Shown piece by piece: positions 186 through 40,429 of a DNA stretch of 40,429 nt. The position numbers and the translations under genes are program-made. The DNA lies in IMG/VR virus record IMGVR_UViG_3300037515_000543, positions 1 to 40,429 of that record; one strand, 5' to 3'. The stretch comes from a virus. Its lineage: Duplodnaviria; Caudoviricetes. Position 1 is the first letter of the stretch. Each line of letters starts with the position of its first letter. A model generated the notes under the pieces. That model did no database searches and had not been told where the DNA came from. It was given only the letters and a program-made list of their open reading frames with translations.

Positions 186-227
186 CCGTTCGCGCGCAAA
201 CCAGCGCGCCGGGAAAGGAGCAACCCC

Positions 228-464
228 GTGCCGGGGCGGGAAATTCCCCGGCAAAGGAGAATCATGATCACCGAACAATCAAACCGCACCGTCTGGGTCA
301 TGCACCCAGACGACAACGTACCCGTCCGGGCCACCAAAACCGGCTACTACCTGAAAAACGGCCGTGCCGTGGGCCTGGAGCTACAATTCCCCGACGGCAA
401 GCGCGTCGGATTCAGCTACGATGAAATCAGATCGTCGATGGCGCAGGCGGCGGAGATTTTTTAA
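228..464 (+). CDS. Hypothetical protein (GTG 228 or ATG 264)
   Basis: AAGGAG precedes both candidate starts. Confidence 0.7.
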   Translation: MPGREIPRQRRIMITEQSNRTVWVMHPDDNVPVRATKTGYYLKNGRAVGLELQFPDGKRVGFSYDEIRSSMAQAAEIF

Positions 465-1975: not shown

Positions 1976-2006
1976 AAAAACCCCTGACAATTTGTCAGGG
2001 GTTTTT
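1976..2006. terminator. Bidirectional Rho-independent terminator between the convergent arms
   Basis: AAAAA-CCCCTGACAA-T-TTGTCAGGGG-TTTTT perfect inverted repeat with A/T tracts on both sides. Confidence 0.85.
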
Positions 2007-2258
2007 GTTTTCCAGTTCACACCGCTGCCTAAACTCCAAGTCAGCATAAGCCTGCAACTCATCCACCTCTCCCAAACGAATCCCCTCCACCACCGCCTCT
2101 ACCCGGCTGCGTGCCTTCAGGCGCTTAAAAATCCCCGTCAGGTGGTTTTTGACCGTCCTCTCTTTATTCCCCAGCGCCCGCCCGATCTCCGCATTGCTGG
2201 CGCCGCCGGCCGCCAACTGTAACACGCGGCGCTGGGCAGGGGTGAGCAGCCAGGTCAT
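1995..2258 (-). CDS. Stand-alone LuxR/NarL-type HTH protein
   Basis: LTPAQRRVLQLAAGGASNAEIGRALGNKERTVKNHLTGIFKRL...SR matches the LuxR C-terminal pattern; ATGA overlap with the M23 gene. Confidence 0.9.
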   Translation of the reverse strand: MTWLLTPAQRRVLQLAAGGASNAEIGRALGNKERTVKNHLTGIFKRLKARSRVEAVVEGIRLGEVDELQAYADLEFRQRCELENKNP

Positions 2259-2734
2259 ATCAGCGGCTCTAGAAACGGCCACGGATCCATATAGCCCGCT
2301 GGCCAGCCCGGCAGCTGATACCCCTCCCGCTTCAGCGTCAAATGCAGGTGTGGGCCGCTGCTGTTACCCGTATTGCCGCTAATCCCCACCACATCCCCGG
2401 CAGAAACGGCCGTACCCACCACCGCCAGACTACCCGCCGCCGCGTGTGCATATAGCGTCGAATAGCCAGCCGCGTGCTGCACAATCACGTGCCAGCCATA
2501 AGCCGACGGCCCGCCGCTTCTGCGCTGGTCGCTGGCCCAAATGACCTCGCCAGAGGCAACGGCATAGTAAGGCGTGCCGAATGGGGCGGAAATATCAATC
2601 CCTTCGTGGCCGGGGAAACCAAACTTTTCGTAATTCTCTGGGTTGTCTCCAAAGCGCTGGGTGATGTATTTCTGGGTTGTGGGCCACGCCTGAAACTCAA
2701 ACGCGGCCCCGTTCAGTTTGGGTCCGTAAACCAC
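2255..2734 (-). CDS. M23 family peptidase (endolysin)
   Basis: HEGID (HxxxD), YAH and GNTGNSSGPHLH zinc motifs. Confidence 0.92.
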   Translation of the reverse strand: MVYGPKLNGAAFEFQAWPTTQKYITQRFGDNPENYEKFGFPGHEGIDISAPFGTPYYAVASGEVIWASDQRRSGGPSAYGWHVIVQHAAGYSTLYAHAAAGSLAVVGTAVSAGDVVGISGNTGNSSGPHLHLTLKREGYQLPGWPAGYMDPWPFLEPLI

Positions 2735-27185: not shown

Positions 27186-27314
27186 TTAGCCCTCCTGCAC
27201 ATACCCCAACCACCCGCCATTATCCCGCGCCTCTGGCGGCACAAACTCCATTTGCAGCGCCTCAAACACATCCGCCTCCTCTGCTGTGGGGATGAGCTGG
27301 TGCTGCCAGGTGTA
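27186..27314 (-). pseudogene. Orphan 3' fragment of a second PolX allele
   Basis: 27197-27314 is 112/118 identical to 28556-28673; reads ...YTWQHQLIPTAEEADVFEALQMEFVPPEARDNGGWLGYVQEG-stop. Confidence 0.85.
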
Positions 27315-27756: not shown

Positions 27757-28065
27757 CTACCAATCTTTTCCATGCCCCTCGGTGATGAGGTCGTAATACT
27801 GCGCCCGGCTCATTGTTGATTGTTGCTGCGCGGCTTGGGGGCGGGGGCTGTTGTCAATATCAAGGCCGATTTGGTTACGGATTTCCGTGAGGGCCATCAA
27901 TTTGTCAACGTTTATGCGCCAGCCCTGCGTGGCTTCATCCCAGGTTCCGCCACAATGTTGACGGATAAAGTTTTTTACATCATAGGTATCACCGGTCAAT
28001 AAATTGCCGTCTAACTGTAAGTTTTTCTTTTCATTTCTGCCGCTGTAGGTGAAGTATGTTGTCAT
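27757..28065 (-). CDS. Hypothetical protein
   Basis: AAGGA SD; follows its own promoter. Confidence 0.75.
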   Translation of the reverse strand: MTTYFTYSGRNEKKNLQLDGNLLTGDTYDVKNFIRQHCGGTWDEATQGWRINVDKLMALTEIRNQIGLDIDNSPRPQAAQQQSTMSRAQYYDLITEGHGKDW

Positions 28066-28103
28066 TTCCGTATCCTTTTCTGCTGTATTTGTAAGATGTC
28101 TCT

Positions 28104-28132
28104 ATTGTAAGCTAACCGCTTGGGTTTAGCAA
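28104..28132 (-). promoter_or_regulatory. Sigma70-type promoter of the two-gene moron
   Basis: TTGCTA-17-TACAAT. Confidence 0.7.
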
Positions 28133-28259
28133 TAGCAAAAGGTACTAATTACCTTAAATTTTTCTACCAATTTCAAAACTGGTCAAATATTCGATTCACA
28201 ACGGCCGCGAGGGATGCGCCCCACTCCACTCAGCAACCAGGCGCATACGGCCGTATCAA

Positions 28260-28291
28260 CAACCGGGCAACCGGACAACCGGACAACCGAA
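28260..28291 (+). repeat. Four tandem 8-mers CAACCGRR
   Basis: caaccggg caaccgga caaccgga caaccgaa. Confidence 0.8.
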
Positions 28292-28305
28292 GGAGAAAGC
28301 GTACC

Positions 28306-28674
28306 TTGCGCGTCCTCAAAATCTACCACCGAGGCAGCGGCTACGGCCGTGTGCTCACCGACGCCGAGCCCGAACACCATCTGGGTGATTTTATCCGGCT
28401 GGAATCGGCCGCCCTGCCCGACCTGGCCCAGCTGGCGGCCGATGTGCTGGGGGATGAGCAGCCGCTGCTGCCGCCGCAGCACCAGCGCAATCTGGCGCGG
28501 TGGATTTTGCGTCATGGTTGTGAGAGGTGGGGAGAACGGCCGTTTCACGCTTCGCGCACATACCCCAACCACCCGTCATTATCCCGCGCCCCTGGTGGCA
28601 CAAATTCCATTTGCAGCGCCTCAAACACATCCCCCTCCTCTGCTGTGGGGATGAGCTGGCGCTGCCAGGTGTAG
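28306..28674 (+). CDS. Possible inverted (plus-strand) gene or gene remnant
   Basis: AAGGAG SD, TTG start, phage-like codons and protein-like sequence up to ~28540; 3' end runs antisense into PolX. Confidence 0.4.
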   Translation: MRVLKIYHRGSGYGRVLTDAEPEHHLGDFIRLESAALPDLAQLAADVLGDEQPLLPPQHQRNLARWILRHGCERWGERPFHASRTYPNHPSLSRAPGGTNSICSASNTSPSSAVGMSWRCQV

Positions 28675-29138
28675 AGCAGGCCGCCGATAAACTTAACACT
28701 CACCTGCGGGGCACGGGTGCGCATCAGCCACATATTAAAATCGTGGCTGCCGGTGCGAATGGTAAAGACGCTGCCCCAATGGGCCGGGGATTCCGGCATG
28801 AAGAGATCGACGGAGTAACGGCCGTATTGAAACTGGATATATTTCTGGACCGTCTTTTTCTTTGGGTCGTAGCCGCCTTTGATGATATGCACCCGCTTTT
28901 CCAGCAGAAACGCCTCGACGGACGTAAGGCCGGGCACAGTGATGCCCAGCAGGTCAGTTTGGCGCATTGGCAGGCACACAATCTCAATATCGCCAATTTG
29001 CGGCCGCTGGCGGCGGATGCTGCCTGCTACGGCAATGCGGTGGCAAAATGGGTTCAGCGCTTCGAGAATGTGCCCGGCCGTTTTCTGGGCGGCGGCGAGC
29101 GGGGTTTTGGGGGTGGCGCTCATTACAGCCACCGCCAC
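28545..29138 (-). CDS. polX: Minimal family X DNA polymerase-like nucleotidyltransferase (no PHP domain)
   Basis: VAGSIRR...IGDIEIV, VDLF, IRTGSHDFN, EEGDVFEALQMEFVPP..R motifs. Confidence 0.88.
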   Translation of the reverse strand: MAVAVMSATPKTPLAAAQKTAGHILEALNPFCHRIAVAGSIRRQRPQIGDIEIVCLPMRQTDLLGITVPGLTSVEAFLLEKRVHIIKGGYDPKKKTVQKYIQFQYGRYSVDLFMPESPAHWGSVFTIRTGSHDFNMWLMRTRAPQVSVKFIGGLLYTWQRQLIPTAEEGDVFEALQMEFVPPGARDNDGWLGYVREA

Positions 29139-29443
29139 GGATTCGCAATCGTCACCGTCACGTGCTCAGCCAGGATCGGGCAGCCGTGTGTATCGAGGTC
29201 GCTTTCCACCTCTTCTGCCGCAATATCGAATTTGGCAGCGATGTGCTGCACCAGGCGGTCGCGCTGTTCGGCCGTCAGTGCTTCGATGTCTAGCATGTAG
29301 ACCTGTTCCGGCTCGCGGTCAGGCAATTTGGCCAGCTGCGCAATGGGAGAGCGCAGCGGTACGACCTCGCCTCCAAAGACATGCAGCCAGGCGGCGGCGC
29401 GCTCGTCATCGCCGTAAACGTGGGCGGTGAAGTCTTTGCTCAT
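29123..29443 (-). CDS. Hypothetical protein, paralog of 26737-27138
   Basis: AGGAGG SD inside the junction repeat; WLHVFG motif. Confidence 0.8.
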   Translation of the reverse strand: MSKDFTAHVYGDDERAAAWLHVFGGEVVPLRSPIAQLAKLPDREPEQVYMLDIEALTAEQRDRLVQHIAAKFDIAAEEVESDLDTHGCPILAEHVTVTIANPWRWL

Positions 29444-29724
29444 GATGCCTCCTGGGAAACGGCCGTTTCCAATTCTGGATTAGCCAGCAACATCGCTGAC
29501 TCGATTTTTGGTATGTCCTCATTTGCAACCTGCCGAACGGAAAACTTTAGACTCAGGGCATTGTTGTCTATGCCCCAGTAGTTTCGCAATTCAAGAGCAA
29601 CGGCCGTCTCGATACCTGCCATTATGCTGCCCATGTGTTGACCTACCATGTGTTTTAGATTGCTGTTGTGTACAACTTTCTCGACCGTAAAGGAAACAAC
29701 TGAACAATCATCGAAATTGCTCAC
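29440..29724 (-). CDS. Hypothetical cassette gene ending ETAVSQEAS
   Basis: Bounded by 23-bp repeats; AT-richer than flanks. Confidence 0.75.
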   Translation of the reverse strand: MSNFDDCSVVSFTVEKVVHNSNLKHMVGQHMGSIMAGIETAVALELRNYWGIDNNALSLKFSVRQVANEDIPKIESAMLLANPELETAVSQEAS

Positions 29725-29951
29725 GATTGCACCTCCTGGGAAACGGCCGTTTCCAGCGCCCTCTGATTATCCAAAAACGTTTTCAGGACATCCCACTCAT
29801 GCGGCTCTATGCTGAAATCAACCTGCGTTTTATCAGCAAACAGCACCGTAAAGCCAACCCCTTGCTGATAGTCGATCAATAATTCAGAATCGTTATTCCC
29901 GCTGATGGTTACTTTAATCACGACGATGCCTCCTGGGAAACGGCCGTTTCC
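29448..29951 (-). repeat. Three identical 23-bp junction repeats GGAAACGGCCGTTTCCCAGGAGG (29448-29470, 29732-29754, 29929-29951)
   Basis: Exact matches read from the sequence; each is palindrome plus SD at a gene boundary. Confidence 0.95.
29721..29921 (-). CDS. Hypothetical cassette gene ending ETAVSQEVQS
   Basis: Bounded by 23-bp repeats; GTGA overlaps. Confidence 0.75.
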   Translation of the reverse strand: MIKVTISGNNDSELLIDYQQGVGFTVLFADKTQVDFSIEPHEWDVLKTFLDNQRALETAVSQEVQS

Positions 29952-30172
29952 CGCTCCAGCTGCTCTTGTGCAATCGTCAGCAGCTCAGCGGCCGTAAACT
30001 GGTAGCTGATGCCGTTTTCATCGGTCACGCTGATGAGTGTCTGGCCGCAGCCCCAGTCGCATTCCAGCAGCGTGACGGGGCCGTGGTGCTCCATTACTAC
30101 GGCGGTGCTGTGTTCGCAGGTTTGGGTTGCTGTGGGGGCGGCGGTTTCGTAGGTTGGTTTGGGTTCGGTCAT
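29918..30172 (-). CDS. Hypothetical protein (CxH...CxxxC) ending ETAVSQEASS
   Basis: AAAGGAGCAAC SD. Confidence 0.75.
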   Translation of the reverse strand: MTEPKPTYETAAPTATQTCEHSTAVVMEHHGPVTLLECDWGCGQTLISVTDENGISYQFTAAELLTIAQEQLERETAVSQEASS

Positions 30173-30282
30173 TTTGTTGCTCCTTTGGTTTCCTTTGGTA
30201 AGACGGCCGTTTCCCGTTCGCTGCGAACGCCCCCTGCCCTGTTGTGAGGTGTGGGAAACGGCCGTTCGGCCGTGGTTGGGTG

Positions 30283-31119
30283 TTAGCCCTCTATTGATAC
30301 CCCTTCTGAAAGGGGTTTTTTGTATTCATAGTAACGCCAGTAACTCATGACTTCCTCTGGAACATCCAAAGGCAACGGATCGCCGCTAGGTTCTTTTGCA
30401 ACCTCTATCACTATGCCCATTTCGTCATCGTTGTACACACCAAGCCAATCGGCGGTGTTTTTCCGGTTGTAAATCGCGTTCTTTAGGGCTTGGTTCAAGA
30501 AGTCATGAAGAGACTTTAGCGGCGTAAACTCTCTGTAACTTTGCGGAAGGTGGCTAACTTCCCCTACCCGCTTTATCAATACATGTTGATTATCAACGAA
30601 TCGGAAATTAAAGCCTTTTGCCCAAAACGCCTGGAAATGTTCATTCTCGCCGGTAAGCCAGTGACCCCAGCGAAAAAGACTGAACATTGATGGAAACCGC
30701 TCATGGTCATCAGGTTGTCTAAAATGCCCCTTGTGCGTCATTCTAAAACGATGTACCTCCCCCAATTCGAGGATCGTTTTCTTATTGGGTCGCTCTTCGA
30801 GAAGTTCCGCGCCGCTGCTTTCATATTCAATAACTGGCCTAACAAACTGCTTTGGCTTCTCTTGCAAATGAGGGAACGTTTGGCGCATGGTCTCAACAAA
30901 ACTCAATAGCTTGTCGCTGGCGGAAAACCACTCGCCCCGCCCCGCCTCATCGCCGAATGCAATGTGTAACCCTGCCTCAAACTCAGTTCCGCCAGGCGCA
31001 ATCGCAAGAATCTCTAAAGACTCAGGGTTTCCGGTTTGCAATGAGGTCAGTCGCTTCCAAGGGTCTATCGACTTGCCTATCTTGATGTTGTTGCCACACT
31101 TGATAAAATATACGGCCAT
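30283..31119 (-). CDS. GIY-YIG/T5orf172-domain protein
   Basis: VYFI.....IKIGKS.DP.KRL.SLQTGNP..L...E..LH..F.....GEWF; AAGGAG SD; AT-rich. Confidence 0.85.
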   Translation of the reverse strand: MAVYFIKCGNNIKIGKSIDPWKRLTSLQTGNPESLEILAIAPGGTEFEAGLHIAFGDEAGRGEWFSASDKLLSFVETMRQTFPHLQEKPKQFVRPVIEYESSGAELLEERPNKKTILELGEVHRFRMTHKGHFRQPDDHERFPSMFSLFRWGHWLTGENEHFQAFWAKGFNFRFVDNQHVLIKRVGEVSHLPQSYREFTPLKSLHDFLNQALKNAIYNRKNTADWLGVYNDDEMGIVIEVAKEPSGDPLPLDVPEEVMSYWRYYEYKKPLSEGVSIEG

Positions 31120-31244
31120 TGGCGAAAGCTCCTTAAACAAAAGCGCCCCGGTGATTCGATAAGCTTCGCCAGAAGGTCGAATCACGCGGGGCGCATGATT
31201 AGTATATTCGATTAGCTCTGGCGAAGCTAGGAAGAATTATACCA
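31120..31244 (-). promoter_or_regulatory. Extended -10 promoter plus structured leader with complementary TTCGCCAG/CTGGCGAA boxes
   Basis: TGGTATAAT at 31236-31244; 17-bp bulged stem 31143-31194; boxes at 31218-31228, 31162-31172 and 31120-31130. Confidence 0.7.
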
Positions 31245-31262
31245 TGAAACGGCCGTTTTTGA

Positions 31263-31505
31263 TCACGCAGCTTCCATTTCTTCCTGAACCAATTCAAGGT
31301 TTCCATCGTTCAATTCGAACCCAGGAAGAAAGACCAAAATGCCCGCCTGCCCTGTTACCTTGGCATGTCTTACCACTATGTCGTGACCGCCGTCTCTCAC
31401 CTTAAGTGCAGTATTTACCACTAGTGCCACAGCGTCAAAGCGGCTAAGACTTTCGGTGCTTGGCGGCGTCTTCTTTTGCTTTTTCAACTTCGTTGATTGG
31501 GACAT
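31263..31505 (-). CDS. Hypothetical protein
   Basis: GAGG SD, protein-like ORF. Confidence 0.65.
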   Translation of the reverse strand: MSQSTKLKKQKKTPPSTESLSRFDAVALVVNTALKVRDGGHDIVVRHAKVTGQAGILVFLPGFELNDGNLELVQEEMEAA

Positions 31506-31866
31506 ATTCGCATCCTCTTTTATAAACGACTTTCCCCGACTTGTTTACATAAGTAACAGGCTTGCCGTTATGATCCTTTCGCTGCCAGCGCCAGCGCCAA
31601 TAGCCATCTGAGTTTTCTTCCAGCCGCCAGCCCTTCGCAGCTTTGCTAACATCGTCACCTAATTCTATATCATCGTCGGTTTCAGCCGTTAGTGGTAAAT
31701 TCTGCATTGGCGATTTGCCACTAGTCGCTACCTCTGGTTTGCCACTAGTTTTGCCACTAGTGGCAGGTGGGGTTTTACCACTAGATTTTTGAGTGATTTC
31801 ACCCACACTTTGCGCCGGTTCAGCTTGGGAAGAAACGGCCGTTTCCCCATCCTCAACAACTTCCAT
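31444..31866 (-). CDS. Hypothetical protein (TSGK repeats, Trp-rich C-terminal domain); start uncertain
   Basis: Part of ORF 31444-32142; TAATG at 31866. Confidence 0.55.
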   Translation of the reverse strand: MEVVEDGETAVSSQAEPAQSVGEITQKSSGKTPPATSGKTSGKPEVATSGKSPMQNLPLTAETDDDIELGDDVSKAAKGWRLEENSDGYWRWRWQRKDHNGKPVTYVNKSGKVVYKRGCEYVPINEVEKAKEDAAKHRKS

Positions 31867-31910
31867 TACTGGAACGGCCGTTCTATCGCCACTCTGACGC
31901 GCTGCGTCAT

Positions 31911-32861
31911 TTACTCCGGGCTGTGCCCGTCGCGCTTTGGGTAATTGTAGCCCCCGGTGCCGTTCGCTTGCGCCCGCGCCTGGCGCGGCGACGTAGGGCG
32001 GGCGCTCTGCGGTGCCTCCCGATTGCGCAAAACGTGATTGCCGTTCTGGTCCACGATGCGGCGCCGTGTTGTGGGGTACTTGTCGATCTCCACGTCGGCC
32101 TGGTCGAGCGTGGTGAACGGCCGTTTGTTGACGGTGTGCCATCCGCTCTCTTCGGCCAAGTCCTCAACCTGAACGTAGTATCCTGGGGTGGGTGGAACGG
32201 CCGTTTCCGCGCTGCCATACTTCGCCGCCTCACGCCGCTGGTACTGCGCGGCAATCCGCGCGGCCTGGTCATCCGCCAGGGTGGGGGCAATTTGGGTCAG
32301 CCGTTCTTTCAGCTTTTGTGATACCAGCGCATCTAATTCGTTCGCCGCGCCGTCCTCCGCCTTTTGGATTTCGTCCTCTCTATCGGATTCACGCACCGCC
32401 TGTTTGTTGTCGTAGCTGAAGCGCTGGTAAGCGATGGTGCTGCCAAAATTGGCAATCACGCCAATGATGACCGTTACCAGGGCCACGGTGGCAATGCTGT
32501 CCAGCGTAGCCACATCAAGCGCCAGCTCGCCCGTTGCCGATAGGGAGAGGTGGGCCACAGAAGCCGCCGCCGCGCCAATGAAGGTGATGATCAGCATCAT
32601 GAGGCTGATGGCCCGCTGCTCGGGCGTACGGGCGTCGTTTAGGTAGGTTTGTAGCCAGACCACGGCCGCCACGTCAAAGAGCAGTGTGCCAATCACGCCG
32701 CTGATGAGGGCGGCTACGTCCGGCCCCAGCACGCCGGGCGGGATCAGGCTGCTGAAGTAGTTGTAGAAGAAGGCGAAGCTGGTGCTGGCTGAAATTGCCA
32801 GGATAACGGCACCAAAGGCCATCGCCGTAAATTTTGCTGCTGTTTTCTTATGTGCGTTCAT
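31911..32861 (-). CDS. Four-TM membrane protein with C-terminal helical domain
   Basis: Four hydrophobic segments; AAGGA SD. Confidence 0.8.
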   Translation of the reverse strand: MNAHKKTAAKFTAMAFGAVILAISASTSFAFFYNYFSSLIPPGVLGPDVAALISGVIGTLLFDVAAVVWLQTYLNDARTPEQRAISLMMLIITFIGAAAASVAHLSLSATGELALDVATLDSIATVALVTVIIGVIANFGSTIAYQRFSYDNKQAVRESDREDEIQKAEDGAANELDALVSQKLKERLTQIAPTLADDQAARIAAQYQRREAAKYGSAETAVPPTPGYYVQVEDLAEESGWHTVNKRPFTTLDQADVEIDKYPTTRRRIVDQNGNHVLRNREAPQSARPTSPRQARAQANGTGGYNYPKRDGHSPE

Positions 32862-32974
32862 TTTCGTTTCCTTTTTTGGTTGGAAACGGCCGTTTCATCG
32901 GTTACAATGTTGACGGCCGTTTCCTGCATAGTTGACGGTCAAGGTGGAGGTCGGCCCGCAAAGGCTGACCTTTA

Positions 32975-33517
32975 CTAAAATCCCAACGCTTCCAGCCAGT
33001 CGGCTACCCCGGCCCGCGTCCACAAGTTTTCATCTACCAATTTGATCATCTCATCGGCCAGGTTATTGTGGCGCCCGGTCGGCCCAATCACCTGGCGCTG
33101 TCCAACGTTGAAGCCAACGCGCTGGCTCAGCCGCCATACGGCCATGCTGTAGCTAAAGTCCGGTCGTTCAATCGATTGTGGCCCAAAGGCGCCAGCGTAG
33201 ACAGCAGCCAGAGCACACGTGCGCCACTCTTCGCGCCGCTCGTAGGCATAGTAGCCAATCTGGACACACTCAACGAAGGAATTGCGGCACAGTGGATGGT
33301 ACTGGCGGCCGATGCGCAGCAGCTCGCTCAATGGCTGTTCCTGCGGCTTGCTGGTGGGTACGTAGCCGGGAATGATGATCGGCTCGGGCTGCTGCTGCGC
33401 CAACTCGCCTGCTGGCTGCCACATCGGCAGGGCAGGGCGGGTGGTTACGGCCGCTTCCTGGCCGGTGTCGATATTGAATAAGGTCAACAGGGGGCGGACA
33501 TTTTTTACAAGATTCAT
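32975..33517 (-). CDS. Hypothetical protein
   Basis: Protein-like ORF in operon order. Confidence 0.7.
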   Translation of the reverse strand: MNLVKNVRPLLTLFNIDTGQEAAVTTRPALPMWQPAGELAQQQPEPIIIPGYVPTSKPQEQPLSELLRIGRQYHPLCRNSFVECVQIGYYAYERREEWRTCALAAVYAGAFGPQSIERPDFSYSMAVWRLSQRVGFNVGQRQVIGPTGRHNNLADEMIKLVDENLWTRAGVADWLEALGF

Positions 33518-33520
33518 TTC

Positions 33521-33613
33521 TCACCATCCAGATGCCGCGACGCCAAGCGCTAGCAGCAAAATAGTTGTGATTGCAATCGTGCTCACAATCAGCTTCATGC
33601 TCTTGATTCTCAT
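33521..33613 (-). CDS. 30-aa hydrophobic peptide
   Basis: Manual translation MRIKSMKLIVSTIAITTILLLALGVAASGW fills the gap between neighbouring genes. Confidence 0.45.
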   Translation of the reverse strand: MRIKSMKLIVSTIAITTILLLALGVAASGW

Positions 33614-33616
33614 GGC

Positions 33617-34072
33617 TCACCGTCCTGGGCCGAGCAACTCGGCCGCATTGGTGGGGCAGTGGGGCGGCAGCCGACGGCCGTCTTGCTGGGCGGCTGCACA
33701 GGCAAGCAGCTGCTCATCCGTCAGCGGTCGTACGGTCGCAGTTGGTCGCGCCAGCATTTCGGCGTAGTCAATGATGGCCTCTGGCTCCTGCTGAGGAACG
33801 GCCGTTGGCGGCAGCTGCGGCACCAGGTTGGTGATCGCTGGCTCGCTGTTGTCATCGACGATGGTGAAGGTGACACCGGGTGCGGCCGTGGCTGCTGGTG
33901 GCAGGATGAGGTTGTTGAGGTTCTGGCCCTCGAGGTAGGGAACGGCCGTTGTGTCCTCTGCATTCGCGGCGATGCTGGCCAGAACACGGCCGTCGTTGAG
34001 GAAGAGGTCGGACACGATCAGCGCCAGGATAACAAGTAAAATGGTATTGAGGGGGTTGCTGTTGTTTTTCAT
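33617..34072 (-). CDS. Membrane-anchored Pro/Thr-rich protein
   Basis: AAAGGAGCAAC SD before ATG 34072; N-terminal TM helix. Confidence 0.75.
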   Translation of the reverse strand: MKNNSNPLNTILLVILALIVSDLFLNDGRVLASIAANAEDTTAVPYLEGQNLNNLILPPAATAAPGVTFTIVDDNSEPAITNLVPQLPPTAVPQQEPEAIIDYAEMLARPTATVRPLTDEQLLACAAAQQDGRRLPPHCPTNAAELLGPGR

Positions 34073-34087
34073 GTGTTGCTCCTTTTT

Positions 34088-34163
34088 TGCTACAATAAAA
34101 TAAGCCGGGTTTGGGTTGCTCCTTTCCCGGTGGGGCTGGTGGTTGCTCACCAGCCCCTTTTTT
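34088..34163 (+). ncRNA. Predicted ~60-nt two-hairpin antisense sRNA with its own promoter and terminator
   Basis: TGcTACAAT at 34088-34096; stem CCGGG/CCCGG; stem GGGGCTGGTG/CACCAGCCCC plus T6; both loops carry GTTGCT. Confidence 0.6.
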
Positions 34164-34165
34164 GA

Positions 34166-34537
34166 TTACGAATGTTTTCCCGGCAAATAAACCGGCTCCA
34201 ACTCCCCGCGCCGCACGGCCGTTTCCTGCTGCCGAATCTTGGCGCGGTTGCGGAGGTAGGTCAGCGGGTCAACCGTACGGCCGCCGCGCTTCACCTGCTG
34301 GGCCTTCGATGGCTTGCGGGTGCGCTGCTGCCGATTGGCGTAGCTGTCCTGCCACGCCTGGCCACTGCTGCGGTATTTGGCCACGCGCTCCACATCGGCC
34401 CGCCGGTAGTAGTAACCGTTATACGGTGCGCCCGGCTTGCGCTGGATGGTCTCGAAGCCGGTGACCTGGCTCAGGTTTCTACGCGATGAGATGCCGAGGA
34501 GAACGGCCGTTTCGCGGGAGGTTAGCCAGTCGGTCAT
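34166..34537 (-). CDS. Excisionase/MerR-like HTH DNA-binding protein
   Basis: WLTSRETAVLLGIS and YYRRADVE motifs; TGATG overlap. Confidence 0.7.
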   Translation of the reverse strand: MTDWLTSRETAVLLGISSRRNLSQVTGFETIQRKPGAPYNGYYYRRADVERVAKYRSSGQAWQDSYANRQQRTRKPSKAQQVKRGGRTVDPLTYLRNRAKIRQQETAVRRGELEPVYLPGKHS

Positions 34538-35406
34538 CACCGCCCCCCTCGCCGCCGTCTCCACGACGGCACGCCAAACATATCGACAATAAAGCTGTCA
34601 CCCGTACCCGGCACAGCCGGGGCCATTTGCAGCAGCCGGTCGGCTACCCGCTTGCCGATGTAGCGGCTCAATTCCGGCCACGTTTTATTGCTGGTGATAA
34701 TCACCGAAATGTTGCTCTGGCAGTGATTAATCACCTTGAAGAGCCGGGCGTGCCGCTCCTCCTCCTGCTGCTCGTGCTTGACGAACGGGATTACCTGCTC
34801 CAGGCCGATGTCGTCAATGACAATCAGCGGGGGGTAGCCAATGACCGACGCGGCGCGGGTGGACAGGATTAGGCCCGTCTCCGTGTCGCGTGATTGCCCC
34901 ATCAGGCTCAATAGGTCGTTACTCAGGTAAAAGCGGCCGGTGGGCCGGGGTACGTAGCCGGGCAGCGGCTTGCCGTATTCGAGTTTCAATCCCGGCATGA
35001 CATCGACCACCGTCTCACACATCGACCACCAGATAGCCTGGGCAATGTGGGTTTTGCCTACGCCGTTGTTACCGCACAAAATCAGGCTGGCATCGGTGTA
35101 GCCGTCTCGTTTGCGCTGTCCCCACAGGCGGGCCATGCGGACCGCCTGCTTTACCTGGGGGTGGCTGGTGTCGAGTGTGTCCAGCGTCACCCGCCCGGCC
35201 TGGATGAGGCGGGCTACGTGGGAACGAACGGCCGTTTCTGGGTTGTCCAGTTCGGCGGGCGGGGCTGCCGGGGCTGGGGTTGGTGCGTTGACGGCCGTTT
35301 GTATCAGGTTGGCGATTGGCTGCGGTTCGTTGGTTGACGGCCGTTTGGCTGCCAGTTGCTGCTGTGCCTTCATGATGTCCTGTGATATGCTCATTGCGTT
35401 TCCCAT
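34537..35406 (-). CDS. DnaC/IstB-like AAA+ helicase loader
   Basis: GNNGVGKT Walker A, LIVIDDIG Walker B, IITSN, RVADRL. Confidence 0.9.
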   Translation of the reverse strand: MGNAMSISQDIMKAQQQLAAKRPSTNEPQPIANLIQTAVNAPTPAPAAPPAELDNPETAVRSHVARLIQAGRVTLDTLDTSHPQVKQAVRMARLWGQRKRDGYTDASLILCGNNGVGKTHIAQAIWWSMCETVVDVMPGLKLEYGKPLPGYVPRPTGRFYLSNDLLSLMGQSRDTETGLILSTRAASVIGYPPLIVIDDIGLEQVIPFVKHEQQEEERHARLFKVINHCQSNISVIITSNKTWPELSRYIGKRVADRLLQMAPAVPGTGDSFIVDMFGVPSWRRRRGGR

Positions 35407-35455
35407 TGCCCGTGTCTGGCCCTGCTCAGGGTTGCCAGATGCGGGCGATTTTGTT

Positions 35456-35812
35456 TTATGCCGCTACGGCGGCCTCGCTCGCTTTCTTTTTGAGCTGTCT
35501 TATTTCATCTAAAGCGTAGTTAATTTCGTTTCGGGCGTGCCAAATCTGTTCGTTCAAATCTTCAATTTCTTGCTTCCGCACCTTGATTTCTGTTTCAAGC
35601 TCAATAATGCGGACTAGCTCTTTCGGCATCTGAGACAGCCCAACAAGCTCCTGAAGCGCCTCCCACTGCTTAGTAAATTCCCATGCCCCAATAGCTTCGA
35701 TTTCCTCCAATCTTGTGCCATATTCCCAGTAGTCAGTTTGGCAAGCCGGGAAATGCGGCGGGCCGAATACTTCCCAGCTTGCTAAATCTTTTTGACAAAT
35801 CGAACATTTCAT
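35456..35812 (-). CDS. Hypothetical Zn-finger/coiled-coil protein between initiator and loader
   Basis: MKCSIC start with AAAGGAGCAAC SD; AT-rich. Confidence 0.7.
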   Translation of the reverse strand: MKCSICQKDLASWEVFGPPHFPACQTDYWEYGTRLEEIEAIGAWEFTKQWEALQELVGLSQMPKELVRIIELETEIKVRKQEIEDLNEQIWHARNEINYALDEIRQLKKKASEAAVAA

Positions 35813-35831
35813 TTTGTTGCTCCTTTTGTTC

Positions 35832-36770
35832 TCACCAACCATGTTCCAGTTTCGGTATTGTCATTGCCTCGGAGAGTTCGGGGGAGGCGCGGCCGTTCTC
35901 TGACGGCACCACCGGCGCGCCCTTGCGTGCCCCGCTAATCGTTTCCCAAATGTTTGCCAGTTTCGGCCGGTCGCTTTTCCTGCCTCGCCAGTCGTGAAGA
36001 TACCAGCTCCAGGCCGCCGCGTTTTCACGGGCCGCGCCGGGGGAAAGTGGGCTGTAAAAAGTCGCTACCTCAACGGCCGTATAACCAGCGGTCAACAGCT
36101 CTTTGGCCTCATGGCTCAATTCCGACCAGAACCGATGCCCGTCAAGCCCGGTTACGTCAACCAGGGTATTAACCATTTCGGCTAAATCGGCGTCAACGGG
36201 GGGAGGGGGGGATTCTTCTCCCTCTTCTTCTGGATCAAAATATGGATCTAAGGGATCGTGCACAACGCCAGTCTGGAGGCTTGTACCATTTGTACCAATA
36301 CCTTGTACCAATGCTTGTACCAATAATTCGTTCTGTTGTACCAATAATTGCTTCATGTCGGCTATCTCTTGTACCAATAAATCGGTTTCGTTTCGTTCTA
36401 TTGGTACAACACCCGCCTGGGCGCTTGTGCCGTTTCGTTTGCCCTCGGGCAAATTCACAGGGTCTATGGGCAGTAAAATCGTGTAAACCAGGTGCGCCCC
36501 ACGGCCGTTACCGTGCTTCTCCGCTACCAGTTCTCCGGCCTCTTGCAGTTTGGGGAGCCAATTCATAACGGTATTGCGGTGAACACGCGCCCGGTCGGCT
36601 AACGTATTGACGCTGGGGCATTCCTTATGATTGCCTGCCACACCCGCTACGCCGTTGTCATCTGCGTACCAGGCAATGGCCACCATGATTCGGTAAGGCG
36701 CAAAGTTCTCCGGTGAGTCTTCGTTGTATTGGCTATACCGTTGCACTGCGTCGATTGCGCGAAGTCCCAT
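35832..36770 (-). CDS. Phage replication initiator (N-terminal wHTH, lambda O-like organisation)
   Basis: PSVNTLADRARVHRNTVMNWLPKLQEAGEL HTH; internal iterons; upstream of the loader. Confidence 0.82.
   Translation of the reverse strand: MGLRAIDAVQRYSQYNEDSPENFAPYRIMVAIAWYADDNGVAGVAGNHKECPSVNTLADRARVHRNTVMNWLPKLQEAGELVAEKHGNGRGAHLVYTILLPIDPVNLPEGKRNGTSAQAGVVPIERNETDLLVQEIADMKQLLVQQNELLVQALVQGIGTNGTSLQTGVVHDPLDPYFDPEEEGEESPPPPVDADLAEMVNTLVDVTGLDGHRFWSELSHEAKELLTAGYTAVEVATFYSPLSPGAARENAAAWSWYLHDWRGRKSDRPKLANIWETISGARKGAPVVPSENGRASPELSEAMTIPKLEHGW
36281..36409. repeat. Iteron array TTGTACCA(A/T)T, probable replication origin
   Basis: Direct copies at 36281, 36290, 36303, 36315, 36336, 36369 and an inverted copy at 36400-36409, in an AT-rich patch. 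Confidence 0.85.
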
Positions 36771-37027
36771 TAAATAAAATCCTCCGCCCTCGGCACCCGC
36801 TGCGCCTCCGCATACCGGTGCCAAAGCTCACGGCCGTTTACCGCGTCATAAGCAAATAATTGCAGCTGGTAGCCCGGGCAATCAGGATGCGTCCACACGC
36901 CCTGACCCAGCGCCTGCCAGCCGACGGCCCGCATTTCGGCCCACAGCTTATGCTCGGTCCATTTGGCGGGTTGCCCGTTGGTTACAATGGGTACTGCTCT
37001 CATGCCTGGTTTTGCGTTTCTTGTCAT
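36770..37027 (-). CDS. Hypothetical protein
   Basis: TAATG coupling to the initiator; GGAG SD. Confidence 0.65.
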   Translation of the reverse strand: MTRNAKPGMRAVPIVTNGQPAKWTEHKLWAEMRAVGWQALGQGVWTHPDCPGYQLQLFAYDAVNGRELWHRYAEAQRVPRAEDFI

Positions 37028-37126
37028 AGTGAAATCTCCGATAAAAACATGGCCAGCAGAGCCAGCGATACGGCCGTTTCCAGCGGTACCAGATTGCGGC
37101 GCGGCGGGTAGGGTGGTGGTGGCAGG

Positions 37127-37834
37127 TTATTGTCTCCACGCGCTTATGATGTTGCGGCAGCTGCGCGCGAAAGCCTCGTAGGGTGCGTCTGCCGCCCCGC
37201 TTCCGTCACCCCATTTGCGGCCGTCGTAATCAACCAAGCTGGGCCAGAATCCGCGCTGCGTAGTCTTACATGGGTCAAAAAATGAATTAAACTGAGTAGC
37301 CATTTTTAGGTGCATATTTCCATCTACACTCACCACATCGGCGAAGTTTCGCATTTCGCTGTGTATCTGCATTTGCCGCTGCGGGGATCCGCCTAGCAGA
37401 TGTACGGGCCATCCAGAAAACTCCAGCATGGGCACATCTGTTTTGCCGTGCCGGGTAGGAACTGAATACCCAAGCACGACTCGCCGGGAATTGATGTGCC
37501 GGGGAATTTTTTTGATCGTGCCAGGAACCTTTGGGATCAACAGTATCGACTCCCGAACATGCTCGGCAATTTCCTCCGCCCGTAGCATGATCTCTTGGTA
37601 TCCACGCCCGGCGTGCCAGTCATGTACTGATGCCATAGTTGGTTGGTGCCGCCGCAATTTTGAAACGTAATCCCACTGGTTTGGCGGCCGCTCTGGGTGT
37701 AAATCAACAAAGTGAAGGTCATAGTAAACAGTTCCTGGCATTTGCGCGCCGTACAGGAATCCCGCATCAATAGCGATTTGCGCAAATCTCTTATTTCCGT
37801 TGGCACAGTAAATCAGCTCAAGGTCAGTCGCCAC
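37127..37834 (-). CDS. TGT/DpdA-like TIM-barrel protein (tentatively DUF6610-like)
   Basis: VHLLGGS and VSVDGN motifs resemble transglycosylase H.LG and D-S motifs. Confidence 0.5.
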   Translation of the reverse strand: MATDLELIYCANGNKRFAQIAIDAGFLYGAQMPGTVYYDLHFVDLHPERPPNQWDYVSKLRRHQPTMASVHDWHAGRGYQEIMLRAEEIAEHVRESILLIPKVPGTIKKIPRHINSRRVVLGYSVPTRHGKTDVPMLEFSGWPVHLLGGSPQRQMQIHSEMRNFADVVSVDGNMHLKMATQFNSFFDPCKTTQRGFWPSLVDYDGRKWGDGSGAADAPYEAFARSCRNIISAWRQ

Positions 37835-38107
37835 AATTCAATCCTCACACTCACCCCGTGCCCGTTCGCGGGCACTCAGGCGGCTGCTCATCAACGATGC
37901 GGCCGTGACGCACACGAGGGAGGTGGCCACAAATAAAATTAAAATAATCAGGATGGTGATGATCGCATTCATTCCGGCTCCCAAAAAAGGGGCAGGCGGC
38001 GGGGCTTTGCAGATTGCCTACGGGGATCGCGTATTGTGGAGGTCGTATCATCGTACCCATTCATGGAAGAAGGTAATGCCCGCCGCCCGCCGCCCGGCAA
38101 ACGGCCG

Positions 38108-38317
38108 TTAAGCCGGGATTGCTAAAGTGTTTTCGTAGGCCCGCCGCTGCTCATTTACGAGCCGCTCACGGTTCTTTAGCTCGCTGTCTACGGCTTCCGC
38201 CGGAACGAACCACTTGCCAGCCTCATCCTGACGACCGTTTAACTTAGCAAACGCCAACGCAGTAGGGTAGGACCACCCAAGAATATTTTCTATGTTTTTT
38301 ATCGTTAATTCGTCCAT
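38108..38317 (-). CDS. Small HTH-like regulator from a leaderless transcript
   Basis: LTIKNIENILGWSYPTA...GKWFVP; first gene at the divergent switch. Confidence 0.7.
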   Translation of the reverse strand: MDELTIKNIENILGWSYPTALAFAKLNGRQDEAGKWFVPAEAVDSELKNRERLVNEQRRAYENTLAIPA

Positions 38318-38324
38318 GACCACC

Positions 38325-38353
38325 ATTCTATAGGAAATCAATACCAATGTCAA
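38325..38353 (-). promoter_or_regulatory. Leftward sigma70 promoter
   Basis: TTGACA-17-TAGAAT, 7 nt upstream of ATG 38317. Confidence 0.85.
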
Positions 38354-38371
38354 TTGATTTATAGAAATTGG

Positions 38372-38400
38372 TTGACACATAGTAGAAAATAGTTTATACT
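38372..38400 (+). promoter_or_regulatory. Rightward sigma70 promoter
   Basis: TTGACA-17-TATACT. Confidence 0.85.
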
Positions 38401-38478
38401 TCCCTTAGTTAAGAAATAAAAAAGCCGCCCCACTCCAGCAAAGAAAAGGACGGCCAAAACCCAGAAAGGATTTGAACC

Positions 38479-38718
38479 ATGATAGCACAGCAGACAGAAA
38501 TCAAAAAGCACAGCTTCTCCGAAATCAAACGACACAAGCAGAAAACATACTGCCCAGTAACCCAGATGCAGCGCTTAAACCGCGCCCTGGCCGAACTCCT
38601 CACCCTGGCCCCCAACGACCTGATGTACGACTACCTGGTCAACCGCTACCTGCAAAGCCTGGACCTCTACCACGTCAACGGCCGCAGCGGCAGCCTGCTG
38701 CCCCAGGCGGTGCAATAA
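38479..38718 (+). CDS. Hypothetical early protein
   Basis: AAAGGA SD; first gene after the rightward promoter. Confidence 0.75.
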   Translation: MIAQQTEIKKHSFSEIKRHKQKTYCPVTQMQRLNRALAELLTLAPNDLMYDYLVNRYLQSLDLYHVNGRSGSLLPQAVQ

Positions 38719-38939
38719 TGGCCCGGCTAACCGACCCCATTATCGAAACCAGCATCCAGCTGCGCAGCCTGCCGTTCCGGCCCATCATTCAGGTAGACGA
38801 CAACACCGTCACCGTCACCCTGCGGCCCTTCTACGGCGATCACGTCCAGTGTACGGCCGTTTCCTTTGCCCTGGCCTGGACCGGGGCAATGAACCAACTC
38901 AAGGGCGAATCGCTCCTCAGTCATGGCGGTGGGCAATGA
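38718..38939 (+). CDS. Hypothetical protein
   Basis: TAATG coupling; MARLTDPIIETS... Confidence 0.7.
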   Translation: MARLTDPIIETSIQLRSLPFRPIIQVDDNTVTVTLRPFYGDHVQCTAVSFALAWTGAMNQLKGESLLSHGGGQ

Positions 38940-39076
38940 CCAACCAAGACCAAAAAGCCCGCGAAGCCGCCGCCGCCGAAAAGGCGCGCCAGGCTGCCGA
39001 AAGATGGCAACGAATCGACAGCGCAGCAGCAGCCGCGATCAAAGAAGACACCTACCGCCGGGAGATGAGCAAATGA
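38936..39076 (+). CDS. Small Ala-rich protein
   Basis: ATGA overlaps at both ends. Confidence 0.55.
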   Translation: MTNQDQKAREAAAAEKARQAAERWQRIDSAAAAAIKEDTYRREMSK

Positions 39077-39762
39077 TTACCCTACAATCACTCACCAAAC
39101 TAGAAAACGGCACCTACTACGCCAAATGGTACGACGCCGACGACCAGCACCCAGACATCGGCCACACCGTTGCGGCCCTGCACCACGAAGACGGCCGTCT
39201 CGACGCCGCCAATCTCAACATCCGCGCCCCGCGCCTGACGGCCGAACAAATGCAGCAGGCGCAGCCGGACACACACCCGGCCTACGAGCTGGCCGCCAAA
39301 GGCACGGCCGTCAAACCCAGCTGGGCCAACCGCTACCAGAAAGCGGCCGAACTGGTGGAGGCGGGGCAGGTGCGGCTCACCGGACCGGAAACGGCCGTAG
39401 TCACCGGCAGCAGCGACACCTACCAGGTCAATGGCAAATGTCACTGCCGCTGGACCCAGTTCCACAGCGAGCCATGCAGCCATTACCTGGCCGTCCGCAT
39501 GGCCCGCGCCCTGGCTCAGCCCATCCTGCCCACCACAGAGGCCGAAAAAGAGGCAGCTTGCGAAGCCCGCCGGCAGGCTAATAAGGACGCGATGGCCAAA
39601 CGCATCGCCGCCCGTGGCGAGAATATCCACGAACGCAACCGCCGCCGCGCTCGCAGCGATGGCGACGGCGCGCGCCAGTGGGCCCGCATGGCCCAGGCCA
39701 ACGGCCGCAGCACCGTCCCGGCGCGCATCTACGACCGGGCAACCGGGGGAGGGGGAAGCTGA
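39073..39762 (+). CDS. SWIM zinc-finger protein
   Basis: YQV...CHC.......PCSHYLA (CxC-xn-CxH). Confidence 0.8.
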   Translation: MITLQSLTKLENGTYYAKWYDADDQHPDIGHTVAALHHEDGRLDAANLNIRAPRLTAEQMQQAQPDTHPAYELAAKGTAVKPSWANRYQKAAELVEAGQVRLTGPETAVVTGSSDTYQVNGKCHCRWTQFHSEPCSHYLAVRMARALAQPILPTTEAEKEAACEARRQANKDAMAKRIAARGENIHERNRRRARSDGDGARQWARMAQANGRSTVPARIYDRATGGGGS

Positions 39763-39836
39763 TGCTCTTCCAAATCTTTTTTGTTATCCTGTTTTTTGCA
39801 ATCGTCATTAGATGTTTGATCAACTGGAGGTGAACT

Positions 39837-40429
39837 GTGAGTAATCAACTGAACGAAATCCACACTATGCTCGAAGCGCTGCTCAAAAGCAGCAATCATA
39901 TTCATTGGATCGGCGGCTACGTGTACGGCCGTACATCCCAGGATGACCCGTTTGTCATCCTCTACCCGGCCAGCGATATGCTGAAAGAAAAAGCGGTGCG
40001 CGTCTACGAGCACGATTTTCGCAAGCTGCCGCCGTTCATCGCCACCGACAACGTTCCGGCCGATACCGAGAACAATCCCAACAAAACCCAGGCGCAGAAG
40101 AGCCGCATCTATCACACCTGCCCGCTCTTCAAAATCTGCACCTACGACGGCAAGGATACCCAGATGGGCAAAGAAAAGCGTTTCGGCGGCGTCCTGCGGG
40201 TGACAGACAGGATGCCAAATGCCCCGAGCGTAAGCGAAGCGTCGCCAACGGCCGTTTCCCAGCCAGCCGCCAAACCAGCAGCAGCACCGGCCGCGAACGC
40301 CAACGGCCGTTCCAAAACCGACCACTTCCTTCAGGTCGGCGATGAGGTGATGGTGCGCGGCAAAAAAGACGAAAAGCCCGGCACCATCCTGGACACCAAC
40401 GGCGGCGAACTGTTCACCGTATCCGTCGA
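39837..40429 (+). CDS. 216-aa hypothetical protein continuing across the circular junction to 185
   Basis: GGAGG SD at 39826-39830, GTG start, open frame to the contig end. Confidence 0.8.
   Translation, partial: MSNQLNEIHTMLEALLKSSNHIHWIGGYVYGRTSQDDPFVILYPASDMLKEKAVRVYEHDFRKLPPFIATDNVPADTENNPNKTQAQKSRIYHTCPLFKICTYDGKDTQMGKEKRFGGVLRVTDRMPNAPSVSEASPTAVSQPAAKPAAAPAANANGRSKTDHFLQVGDEVMVRGKKDEKPGTILDTNGGELFTVSV
40303..40429. repeat. Terminal direct repeat, identical to 1-127
   Basis: Exact identity. Confidence 0.95.

Follow-up and report, generated by a model that had tools for sequence, protein, structure and literature searches.

Does the intergenic locus at 34088-34163 of this phage encode a small RNA and, if it does, would that RNA act on one neighbouring gene, on several ribosome-binding sites of the same genome or, as the preliminary description had proposed, as an RNA-based immunity determinant? 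The window, by which we mean the whole 40,429-nt stretch that was analysed, is a circular phage contig (127-nt terminal repeat, circle of 40,302 bp) carrying genes for terminase, portal, capsid and tail proteins together with an O-like initiator and a DnaC-like loader. Since a relative, L108, sits in a MAG of the class Anaerolineae, the host probably belongs to that class. A pair of strong sigma-70-like promoters point away from each other, from 38353(-) and 38372(+); within 38325-38400 these near-consensus promoters stand back to back and only 19 bp apart, so that a cI gene has no room between them, and the first minus-strand gene that follows encodes a 69-aa protein with weak DNA-binding-like matches. 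Neither an integrase nor a CI-type repressor was found among the window ORFs scanned, in line with the earlier remark that the phage has no obvious CI/S24 repressor, and the integrases of relatives, used as tblastn queries, found no match in the window; no route to lysogeny is thus apparent in this phage.

Elsewhere in the genome, the palindrome ACGGCCGT occurs 92 times (2.3 copies per kb), frequently in the form AAACGGCCGTTT, and yields ETAV in many of the encoded proteins; it is common to relatives and to host-family DNA and is nearly absent from G173, a phage described below. Three successive minus-strand genes (29448, 29732 and 29929) terminate in one cassette, GGAAACGGCCGTTTCCCAGGAGG, which provides the following gene with its ribosome site and so forms a translational-coupling module in repeated use. 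A 118-nt direct repeat, 95% identical (27197-27314 and 28556-28673), brackets a block of small genes; 28545-29138(-) encodes a stand-alone DNA polymerase X/beta thumb-domain protein, the G001 copy of which is 88% identical; and 1995-2282(-), at the end of the late operon, encodes 95 aa that match a sigma-factor HTH (E 2.7e-7). Gene 32975-33517 (minus strand), the second one downstream of the RNA locus, has close homologs in 26 of 167 host-order genomes, mostly in seemingly chromosomal settings and without the RNA.

Read along the plus strand, the locus opens with a predicted extended -10 promoter, TG-C-TACAAT (34088-34096), which had been noted earlier, which we confirmed, and which the ribosome site of gene 34072, on the opposite strand, immediately precedes. 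The predicted small RNA (34103-34163, plus strand, about 60 nt, its 5' end placed from the position of the -10) would consist of stem-loop 1 (34104-34131), with a CCGGG/CCCGG stem and a 16-nt loop that holds a weak inner stem and an apical UUGC, followed by stem-loop 2 and a U-tract (34132-34163; hairpin 34132-34157, T6 34158-34163), which together are terminator-like and form the top terminator match within 28000-40429. The 3' end lies 2 nt from the stop codon of the upstream opposite-strand gene (34166-34537, minus strand). The two hairpins described before stand up to folding (MFE -36 kcal/mol, z -4.69), with none of 200 shuffles equally stable. Within loop 1 lies the putative seed, GUUGCUCCUUU (34115-34125), composed of a mimic of the 16S tail, CUCCUUU, and a phage-specific extension, GUUG. 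In the MFE structure the anti-SD CC is weakly paired inside the inner stem, so that the exposed apical loop is UUGC. A contig from DNA runs that spans 34075-34164 (contigs of three such runs were available) has one change, in the variable part of the loop. Both hairpins of the window do display GTTGCT, as had been reported, but among 20 aligned loci the second loop has it only in the window and in L002; its sequence varies freely, which rules it out as a seed and defeats the idea of two functional loops.

Exact-pattern scans recovered the full architecture at 4 of 5 viral, 18 of 66 metagenome and 1 of 5 genome loci, the remaining loci being discarded for want of the second hairpin and the promoter; the chance matches removed were L003 (1 of 5), 26 of 30, 48 of 66, 4 of 5, 20 of 24 and 91 of 96, the last set judged by eye. 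Two cassette loci were also recovered via protein searches, a form of retrieval that gave few unbiased relatives. Altogether the cassette was found at 18 further loci, flanked by differing genes, making 19 loci of the GUUG type. In the 20 aligned loci the order of parts is constant: start codon and ribosome site on the opposite strand, -10, 7-11 variable bases, stem-loop 1, stem-loop 2 and tail. The T, A, A and T of the -10 hexamer do not vary, although retrieval imposed no constraint on the -10, and the TG of the extended -10 is in place at 13 of the 20, with a spacer of 7-11 nt to the stem. In a model-based alignment (20 rows, 18 distinct), which is fitted to the structure and therefore leans towards it, 99.6% of cells are paired and double-sided changes occur at 8 of 15 pairs; none of 500 shuffles reaches these values, and slid controls drop to 34-57%. 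Most of the covariation falls in stem-loop 2 (7 of 10 pairs); stem-loop 1 has a single double-sided change, in L226, and its invariance, like that of loop 1, is partly a matter of ascertainment because the retrieval patterns fixed most of that sequence. The plus strand folds better than the minus strand in 16 of the 18 distinct sequences; a run of at least five U follows hairpin 2 in 12 of them, the other 6 having a pyrimidine-rich tail only, and an opposite-strand U-tract after hairpin 2 was found at 0 of the 20 loci. Thus, an invariant -10, covarying stems and a strand bias support the prediction of a plus-strand small RNA gene, and on balance we take the locus to be a conserved, uncatalogued small-RNA cassette with a credible function against several ribosome-binding sites.

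We also considered whether the cassette might be an element of host chromosomes, and rejected this: a pattern search of 160 family genomes gave one true match (G005:C24), a second match lacking the structure; a model search of 151 genomes gave one strong match, the weaker ones that were inspected being terminators; and across the class the count was 1 of 401 genomes, samples that consist of incomplete genomes. An annotated phage collection held no real match for the cassette or for its variant. As to the carriers themselves, G005:C24 has a tRNA-like sequence immediately upstream of its integrase and a cold-shock protein gene within the operon downstream of the RNA (L120:481-1741 and L120:7742-8014), while G002, G003 and G173 encode actin-like ParM-type proteins (L113:4649-5653, L115:5976-6971 and L226:6002-7363); G002 and G173 encode an integrase as well, which suggests phage-plasmid and integrating lifestyles in this group.

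What would such an RNA bind? The complement of the loop 11-mer, AAAGGAGCAAC, occurs exactly five times in the window, at 214+, 30176-, 34075-, 34115- and 35816-: one copy is the loop complement itself, three lie 2-3 nt before an ATG, which bears out the claim that the loop can pair with the SD sequences of three minus-strand genes, and one occupies 214-224. With one mismatch allowed, 0.81 copies are expected, and five were reached in 1 of 100 shuffles. The first predicted target (34075-34085, minus strand) is the ribosome site of the neighbour gene (34072-33617), which encodes 151 aa with a hydrophobic N-terminus; this site is retained in all homologs of the cassette, although beside differing genes, and the variants in L044 and L070 are G-U compatible. 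The second (35816-35826, minus strand) precedes a 118-aa gene (35812-35456) located between the O-like initiator and the DnaC-like loader, and the third (30176-30186, minus strand) an 84-aa gene (30172-29918). Genes 35812 and 30172 do share a 17-mer, as had been stated; among homologs of gene 30172, G003 has a wobble variant and G001 and G004 lack the motif. Pfam, PHROG and ESM Atlas gave nothing usable on the functions of the target genes.

The motif is not confined to the window. We counted AAGGAG sites followed by a start codon and an ORF of at least 40 aa, and scored the CAAC extension. Among six carriers, 18 of 65 such starts are preceded by the loop complement AAGGAGCAAC; for the non-carriers (nine prophage or chromosome stretches) the count is 0 of 51 (p 1e-5). 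After removal of the six neighbour sites and two leader sites AAGGAG+CAAC remains at 10 of 57 versus 0 of 51 (p 0.0014), p-values that overstate independence because the genomes are related. BLAST sorts the 23 genes whose sites are exact or differ by one mismatch into 12 groups; where a site has one mismatch, G-U pairing is preserved in 4 of 5 cases among carriers and in 0 of 5 among non-carriers, counts that are likewise not independent, the phages being related. In the host MAG G005, the 11-mer has 10 copies, 4 of them on a 48.6-kb phage contig and 6 across the other 7.65 Mb, the reversed control 11-mer having 12. The tag is enriched at phage start codons and rare in the host-group MAG.

The fifth copy belongs to a longer match. 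Bases 34113-34130 are, as claimed, an exact reverse complement of 209-226 (18 of 18), for which about 1e-6 matches would be expected in 80.6 kb at uniform composition, and since the contig is circular, the reported distance of 6.4 kb around the circle is right. The site had been described as the SD of an ORF starting at 228; this fails in comparison, a start codon after the motif being present only in the window and in G001 and missing in G002, G004, G005 and G172, so that 209-226 (plus strand) is better read as an upstream leader site and GTG228 is disfavoured as the regulated start. Downstream lie a conserved hairpin (230-252) and a plain AAAGGAG (253-259), and then, at 264-464(+), a 66-aa gene in frame with GTG228 and with this AAAGGAG of its own, so that ATG264 is the probable true start; 209-226, in the divergent operon, is probably a conserved site within the leader, located 39 nt ahead of the ribosome site for ATG264. 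The layout recurs in G001, G002, G004 and G172, and in G005 without the second AAAGGAG, before differing genes: the hairpin is present in 6 of 6 leaders, with a different sequence in G001, and AAAGGAG comes next in 5 of 6. Homologs of the 66-aa gene in G001 and G004 (89-91%) are located one gene further from the leader. Predicted pairing with the leader runs from the loop through the 3' arm, often into hairpin 2, and cognate and noncognate duplex energies gave no consistent cognate advantage for this long site. In G172 (57 kb, with terminal repeats) the leader is kept with 16-nt complementarity and no RNA gene was found; a weak complement at 34865 was rejected, being in a coding region and without a cassette. 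This is evidence against a strict dependence, and could reflect recent loss or a second role of the leader.

The persistence of that leader without the RNA would also fit a different explanation, in which AAAGGAGCAAC is an mRNA site bound or cleaved by a phage or host protein, such as a translational repressor or a factor resembling RegB or CsrA. The element would then be a leader of the minus strand that has two sites in tandem, at a distance of 40 nt, and the plus-strand RNA would be incidental. Both leaders, read in the mRNA sense, do have the same arrangement of hairpin, motif, about 40 nt and ribosome site. Binding by a protein, however, does not account for a -10 that is invariant on the opposite strand, for the U-tract of that strand or for the G-U pairs, which favour that strand too, and the Pfam/PHROG scans of ORF subsets revealed no shared RNA-binding protein, a cold-shock protein occurring only in G005; we judge it improbable.

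The 16S ends of the host family read GGATCACCTCCTTT in 4 of 5 fetched loci and match the CUCCUUU of the loop; the duplex of loop and tag is predicted at -15.7 kcal/mol versus -7.8 for the 16S tail, the extension nearly doubling the energy, and opening the loop 11-mer costs 4.7 kcal/mol. By an accessibility-corrected score, the four sites rank 1-4 among 54 start regions, the leader being first and by far the strongest predicted target (-16.1); the three SD-type sites (-11.5, -9.3 and -8.9) are barely above the best starts without the motif (-8.8, -8.4 and -8.2). The bare loop binds 208 windows below -14 kcal/mol, and the one that lies opposite the tape-measure gene reaches -25.9. A conserved, accessible seed complementary to several ribosome-binding sites, as a trans-acting anti-RBS RNA should have, is thus present.

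From these elements the following mechanism can be proposed. Host sigma-70 polymerase would likely transcribe 34103-34163(+), and the loop would pair with AAAGGAGCAAC and likely block translation initiation at several unrelated phage genes. With UUGC open and the CC of the generic anti-SD CUCC weakly masked, the phage-specific bases would govern first contact: UUGC would nucleate pairing at GCAA, and ordinary host sites would be spared. The duplex would then extend to 11 bp and prevail over the 16S tail. For the three SD sites, translational repression by occlusion would follow. At 209-226, likely a ribosome standby or processing site, the RNA would open its own stem and form at least 18 bp, with standby blocking or duplex cleavage as the presumable outcome. 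The mRNA of gene 34166-34537 would read through the locus and so pair perfectly in cis with the RNA, 40 nt ahead of the neighbour's site. The net effect would likely be that accessory genes of the early and middle phases, a set that changes, are damped in both operons; the weakest step concerns the physiological purpose, because the functions of the targets give no lead, and damping of accessory early genes is the minimal reading. On the strength of these sequence comparisons, then, a multi-target antisense RNA that likely blocks translation initiation is the interpretation that we favour, with fair rather than high confidence.

Covariation between loop and targets had been named as a check. 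When nothing but two CTCCTTT copies around a -10 was fixed in the search, 96 loci were obtained, among them four that were known and one new full architecture, in G173, a 40.8-kb phage of 65% GC which has in common with G002 and G003 distant actin-like and integrase genes. Its stems are rewritten, but promoter, stems and U-tract are retained, and a model (R1) built without G173 scores it at 35.8 bits. The loop is GUGUCUCCUUU and the site of the neighbour, here an FtsK/SpoIIIE gene, is AAAGGAGACAC: loop and neighbouring site have changed together, from GUUG to GUGU, in bases that are located in the apical loop and that the search pattern had left free. At distant sites the picture is mixed. Only one further start in G173 has AAGGAGACAC, with the full ACAC, and there is no long leader; AAGGAG-AC starts amount to 7 of 14 versus 4 of 51 in non-carriers (p 0.001), yet a 2x2 swap test of loops and sites that excluded the neighbour sites gave p 0.25, and a reciprocal energy test against non-carriers gave p 0.54 for G173 and 0.0007 for the GUUG group. 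The covariation is, in short, one clean event at the neighbouring site only, with a mixed signal in trans. A changed specificity of a binding protein would also alter two tandem sites together. The notion that the neighbouring genes were spread by plasmids was dropped, the FtsK gene in G173 being its sole basis.

The restriction of the clean event to the neighbouring site also bears on a narrower explanation, that the RNA is real but targets only the neighbour, by cis pairing and by pairing of the loop with the adjacent ribosome site, and the leader, the other copies being a ribosome site favoured in this lineage and spread by recombination between intergenic regions. Such a restriction would agree with the mixed trans tests in G173, with the dominance of the leader in the energy ranking, with the gain or loss of the motif at gene 30172, which amounts to a 2-nt indel, and with the reuse of RBS cassettes in these genomes (families D1 and D3). 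It has to contend with the exact complement at 10 of 57 trans starts versus 0 of 51, on non-homologous genes, and with G172, which has no RNA and 0 of 3 such starts, a small number; we hold this explanation to be unlikely. The claim of a multi-target translational regulon that we favour has been upheld in part: enrichment of the tag at several ribosome-binding sites of the phage itself and one concerted change of loop and site speak for it, and the two functional loops have to be given up.

Could the RNA instead replace CI, silencing both early operons in the prophage as a determinant of immunity or lysogeny? The RNA has predicted targets in both operons, tyrosine integrases are present in G001, G002, G004 and G005, no CI-like match was obtained among the ORFs scanned, and it is G172, without the RNA, that has a phrog_3 CI-like repressor. 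However, no integrase was detected in the window, and the targets, which are internal, include neither cro-like genes nor the initiator nor first genes and gave no match to an antirepressor; G004 has a small HTH-like gene at the switch, with no PHROG match, G005 has a weak match to the G172 repressor, and the relatives are fragments of which some ORFs were scanned. The proposal of RNA-based immunity is thus unsupported, and we regard it as very improbable.

In spite of its likeness to several known RNAs, the predicted RNA that we favour differs from all those considered: (i) RNAs of the C4 type are cloverleaf-like, with two loops that pair with targets; they are processed from a precursor by RNase P and control an antirepressor or immunity, and C4 of P1/P7 and the CI RNA of P4 control phage genes via short loop-target pairing at repeated sites. 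The candidate shares with them this short pairing of a phage small RNA at repeated sites, but it has two plain hairpins and no cloverleaf, a predicted promoter of its own, one conserved seed and targets that are ribosome sites across two operons. Rfam/Infernal found no family match at the locus, and none of the C4 families up to E=1; the sole c4-a1b1 match is at 8951, with 23 bits against a cut-off of 46.7, and L226, L113 and L120 gave no C4 match at the gathering cut-off. The c4 and c4-a1b1 motifs are catalogued in the available text of PMC2864571. (ii) The mycobacterial sRNA B11/6C, according to the accessible part of PMC10470900, uses an unstructured loop to repress many mRNAs by pairing with their ribosome-binding sites, a clear likeness; B11 is chromosomal and, as described there, has two redundant C-rich loops and host targets (Actinomycetota), whereas the RNA predicted here is phage-encoded, with one conserved loop, no Rfam match and a tag nearly absent from the host-group MAG. 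(iii) P22 sar, which blocks initiation of ant translation, and lambda OOP/aQ are, in the portion consulted of PMC12197685, short cis, single-target antisense RNAs, each from a promoter facing against a phage operon. The present RNA, whose promoter and terminator signatures are conserved, would have this orientation as well, but it would start about 18 nt beyond the neighbour's site and end 2 nt before the upstream stop, so that it would overlap in cis neither the ribosome site nor the coding region of its target, and it would reach the neighbour and the others via a second copy of the site in its loop. (iv) SviR of the Vibrio satellite PLE is, in the sections consulted of 10.1101/2022.04.08.487710, an sRNA that a mobile element encodes and that acts in trans on several phage-related targets, repressing translation, all of which is predicted here as well; SviR, as presented there, acts across two genomes, whereas every target predicted here belongs to the phage itself and bears the one tag. 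Our literature search gave no description of this RNA; subscription papers, supplements and large catalogues of candidate RNAs may hold one.

The closest parallel to the tag itself comes from Cluster K mycobacteriophages. Their SAS, in the available text of PMC3203893, is an extended SD motif, the 13-bp GGGATAGGAGCCC, found 3-7 bp before the start codons of non-homologous, non-structural genes in 11-19 copies and rare in the host, the same position and kind of motif as AAAGGAGCAAC; Pope 2011 noted in four phages one reverse copy away from gene starts and left RNA or protein binding open (PMC3203893), and SAS is still unexplained in the consulted parts of the 2024-2025 papers (PMC11373665, PMC12699233). 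The two motifs are distinct, SAS having another sequence, more copies and, as those papers describe it, a host of another phylum, and the passages available of PMC3203893, PMC11373665 and PMC12699233 describe no partner RNA. In Anaya (25,000-60,800), SAS matches run forward in 16 of 17 cases; the lone reverse copy falls between genes 96 and 97, where a long hairpin (z -4.81) displays CCUCCUAU in its loop. The region 59770-59990 (L329:34770-34990) has matches in 150 phage records, and among 11 sampled phages (Anaya and L330-L339) both the stems and a TAGACT that lies upstream are conserved. The anti-SAS loop CCUCCUAUCCC is exact in 6 of these phages and nearly so in 1, and it is missing from 4 (Yuna, SirPhilip, Keshu and Pixie). 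This structured intergenic region is a candidate anti-SAS RNA, which we offer as a lead only.

Taken one step further, phages may tag chosen genes with a private SD extension that is read by the apical loop of one sRNA, a re-programmable regulon that replaces a protein repressor across both early operons in Anaerolineae phages, the same logic explaining SAS; as a whole we consider this generalisation rather doubtful. Most phage antisense RNAs known so far act either on a single target in cis or on genes of the host. If the multi-target function is true, a 60-nt RNA and a private tag on unrelated genes would make up a compact, portable regulon, which a gene could enter or quit by a 2-nt change. 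An anti-RBS RNA of this kind would offer, for the SAS motifs of Cluster K, a concrete hypothesis that can be tested at the bench, since those phages can be grown on a laboratory strain, and, for the little-studied phages of the Anaerolineae, a piece of regulatory anatomy.
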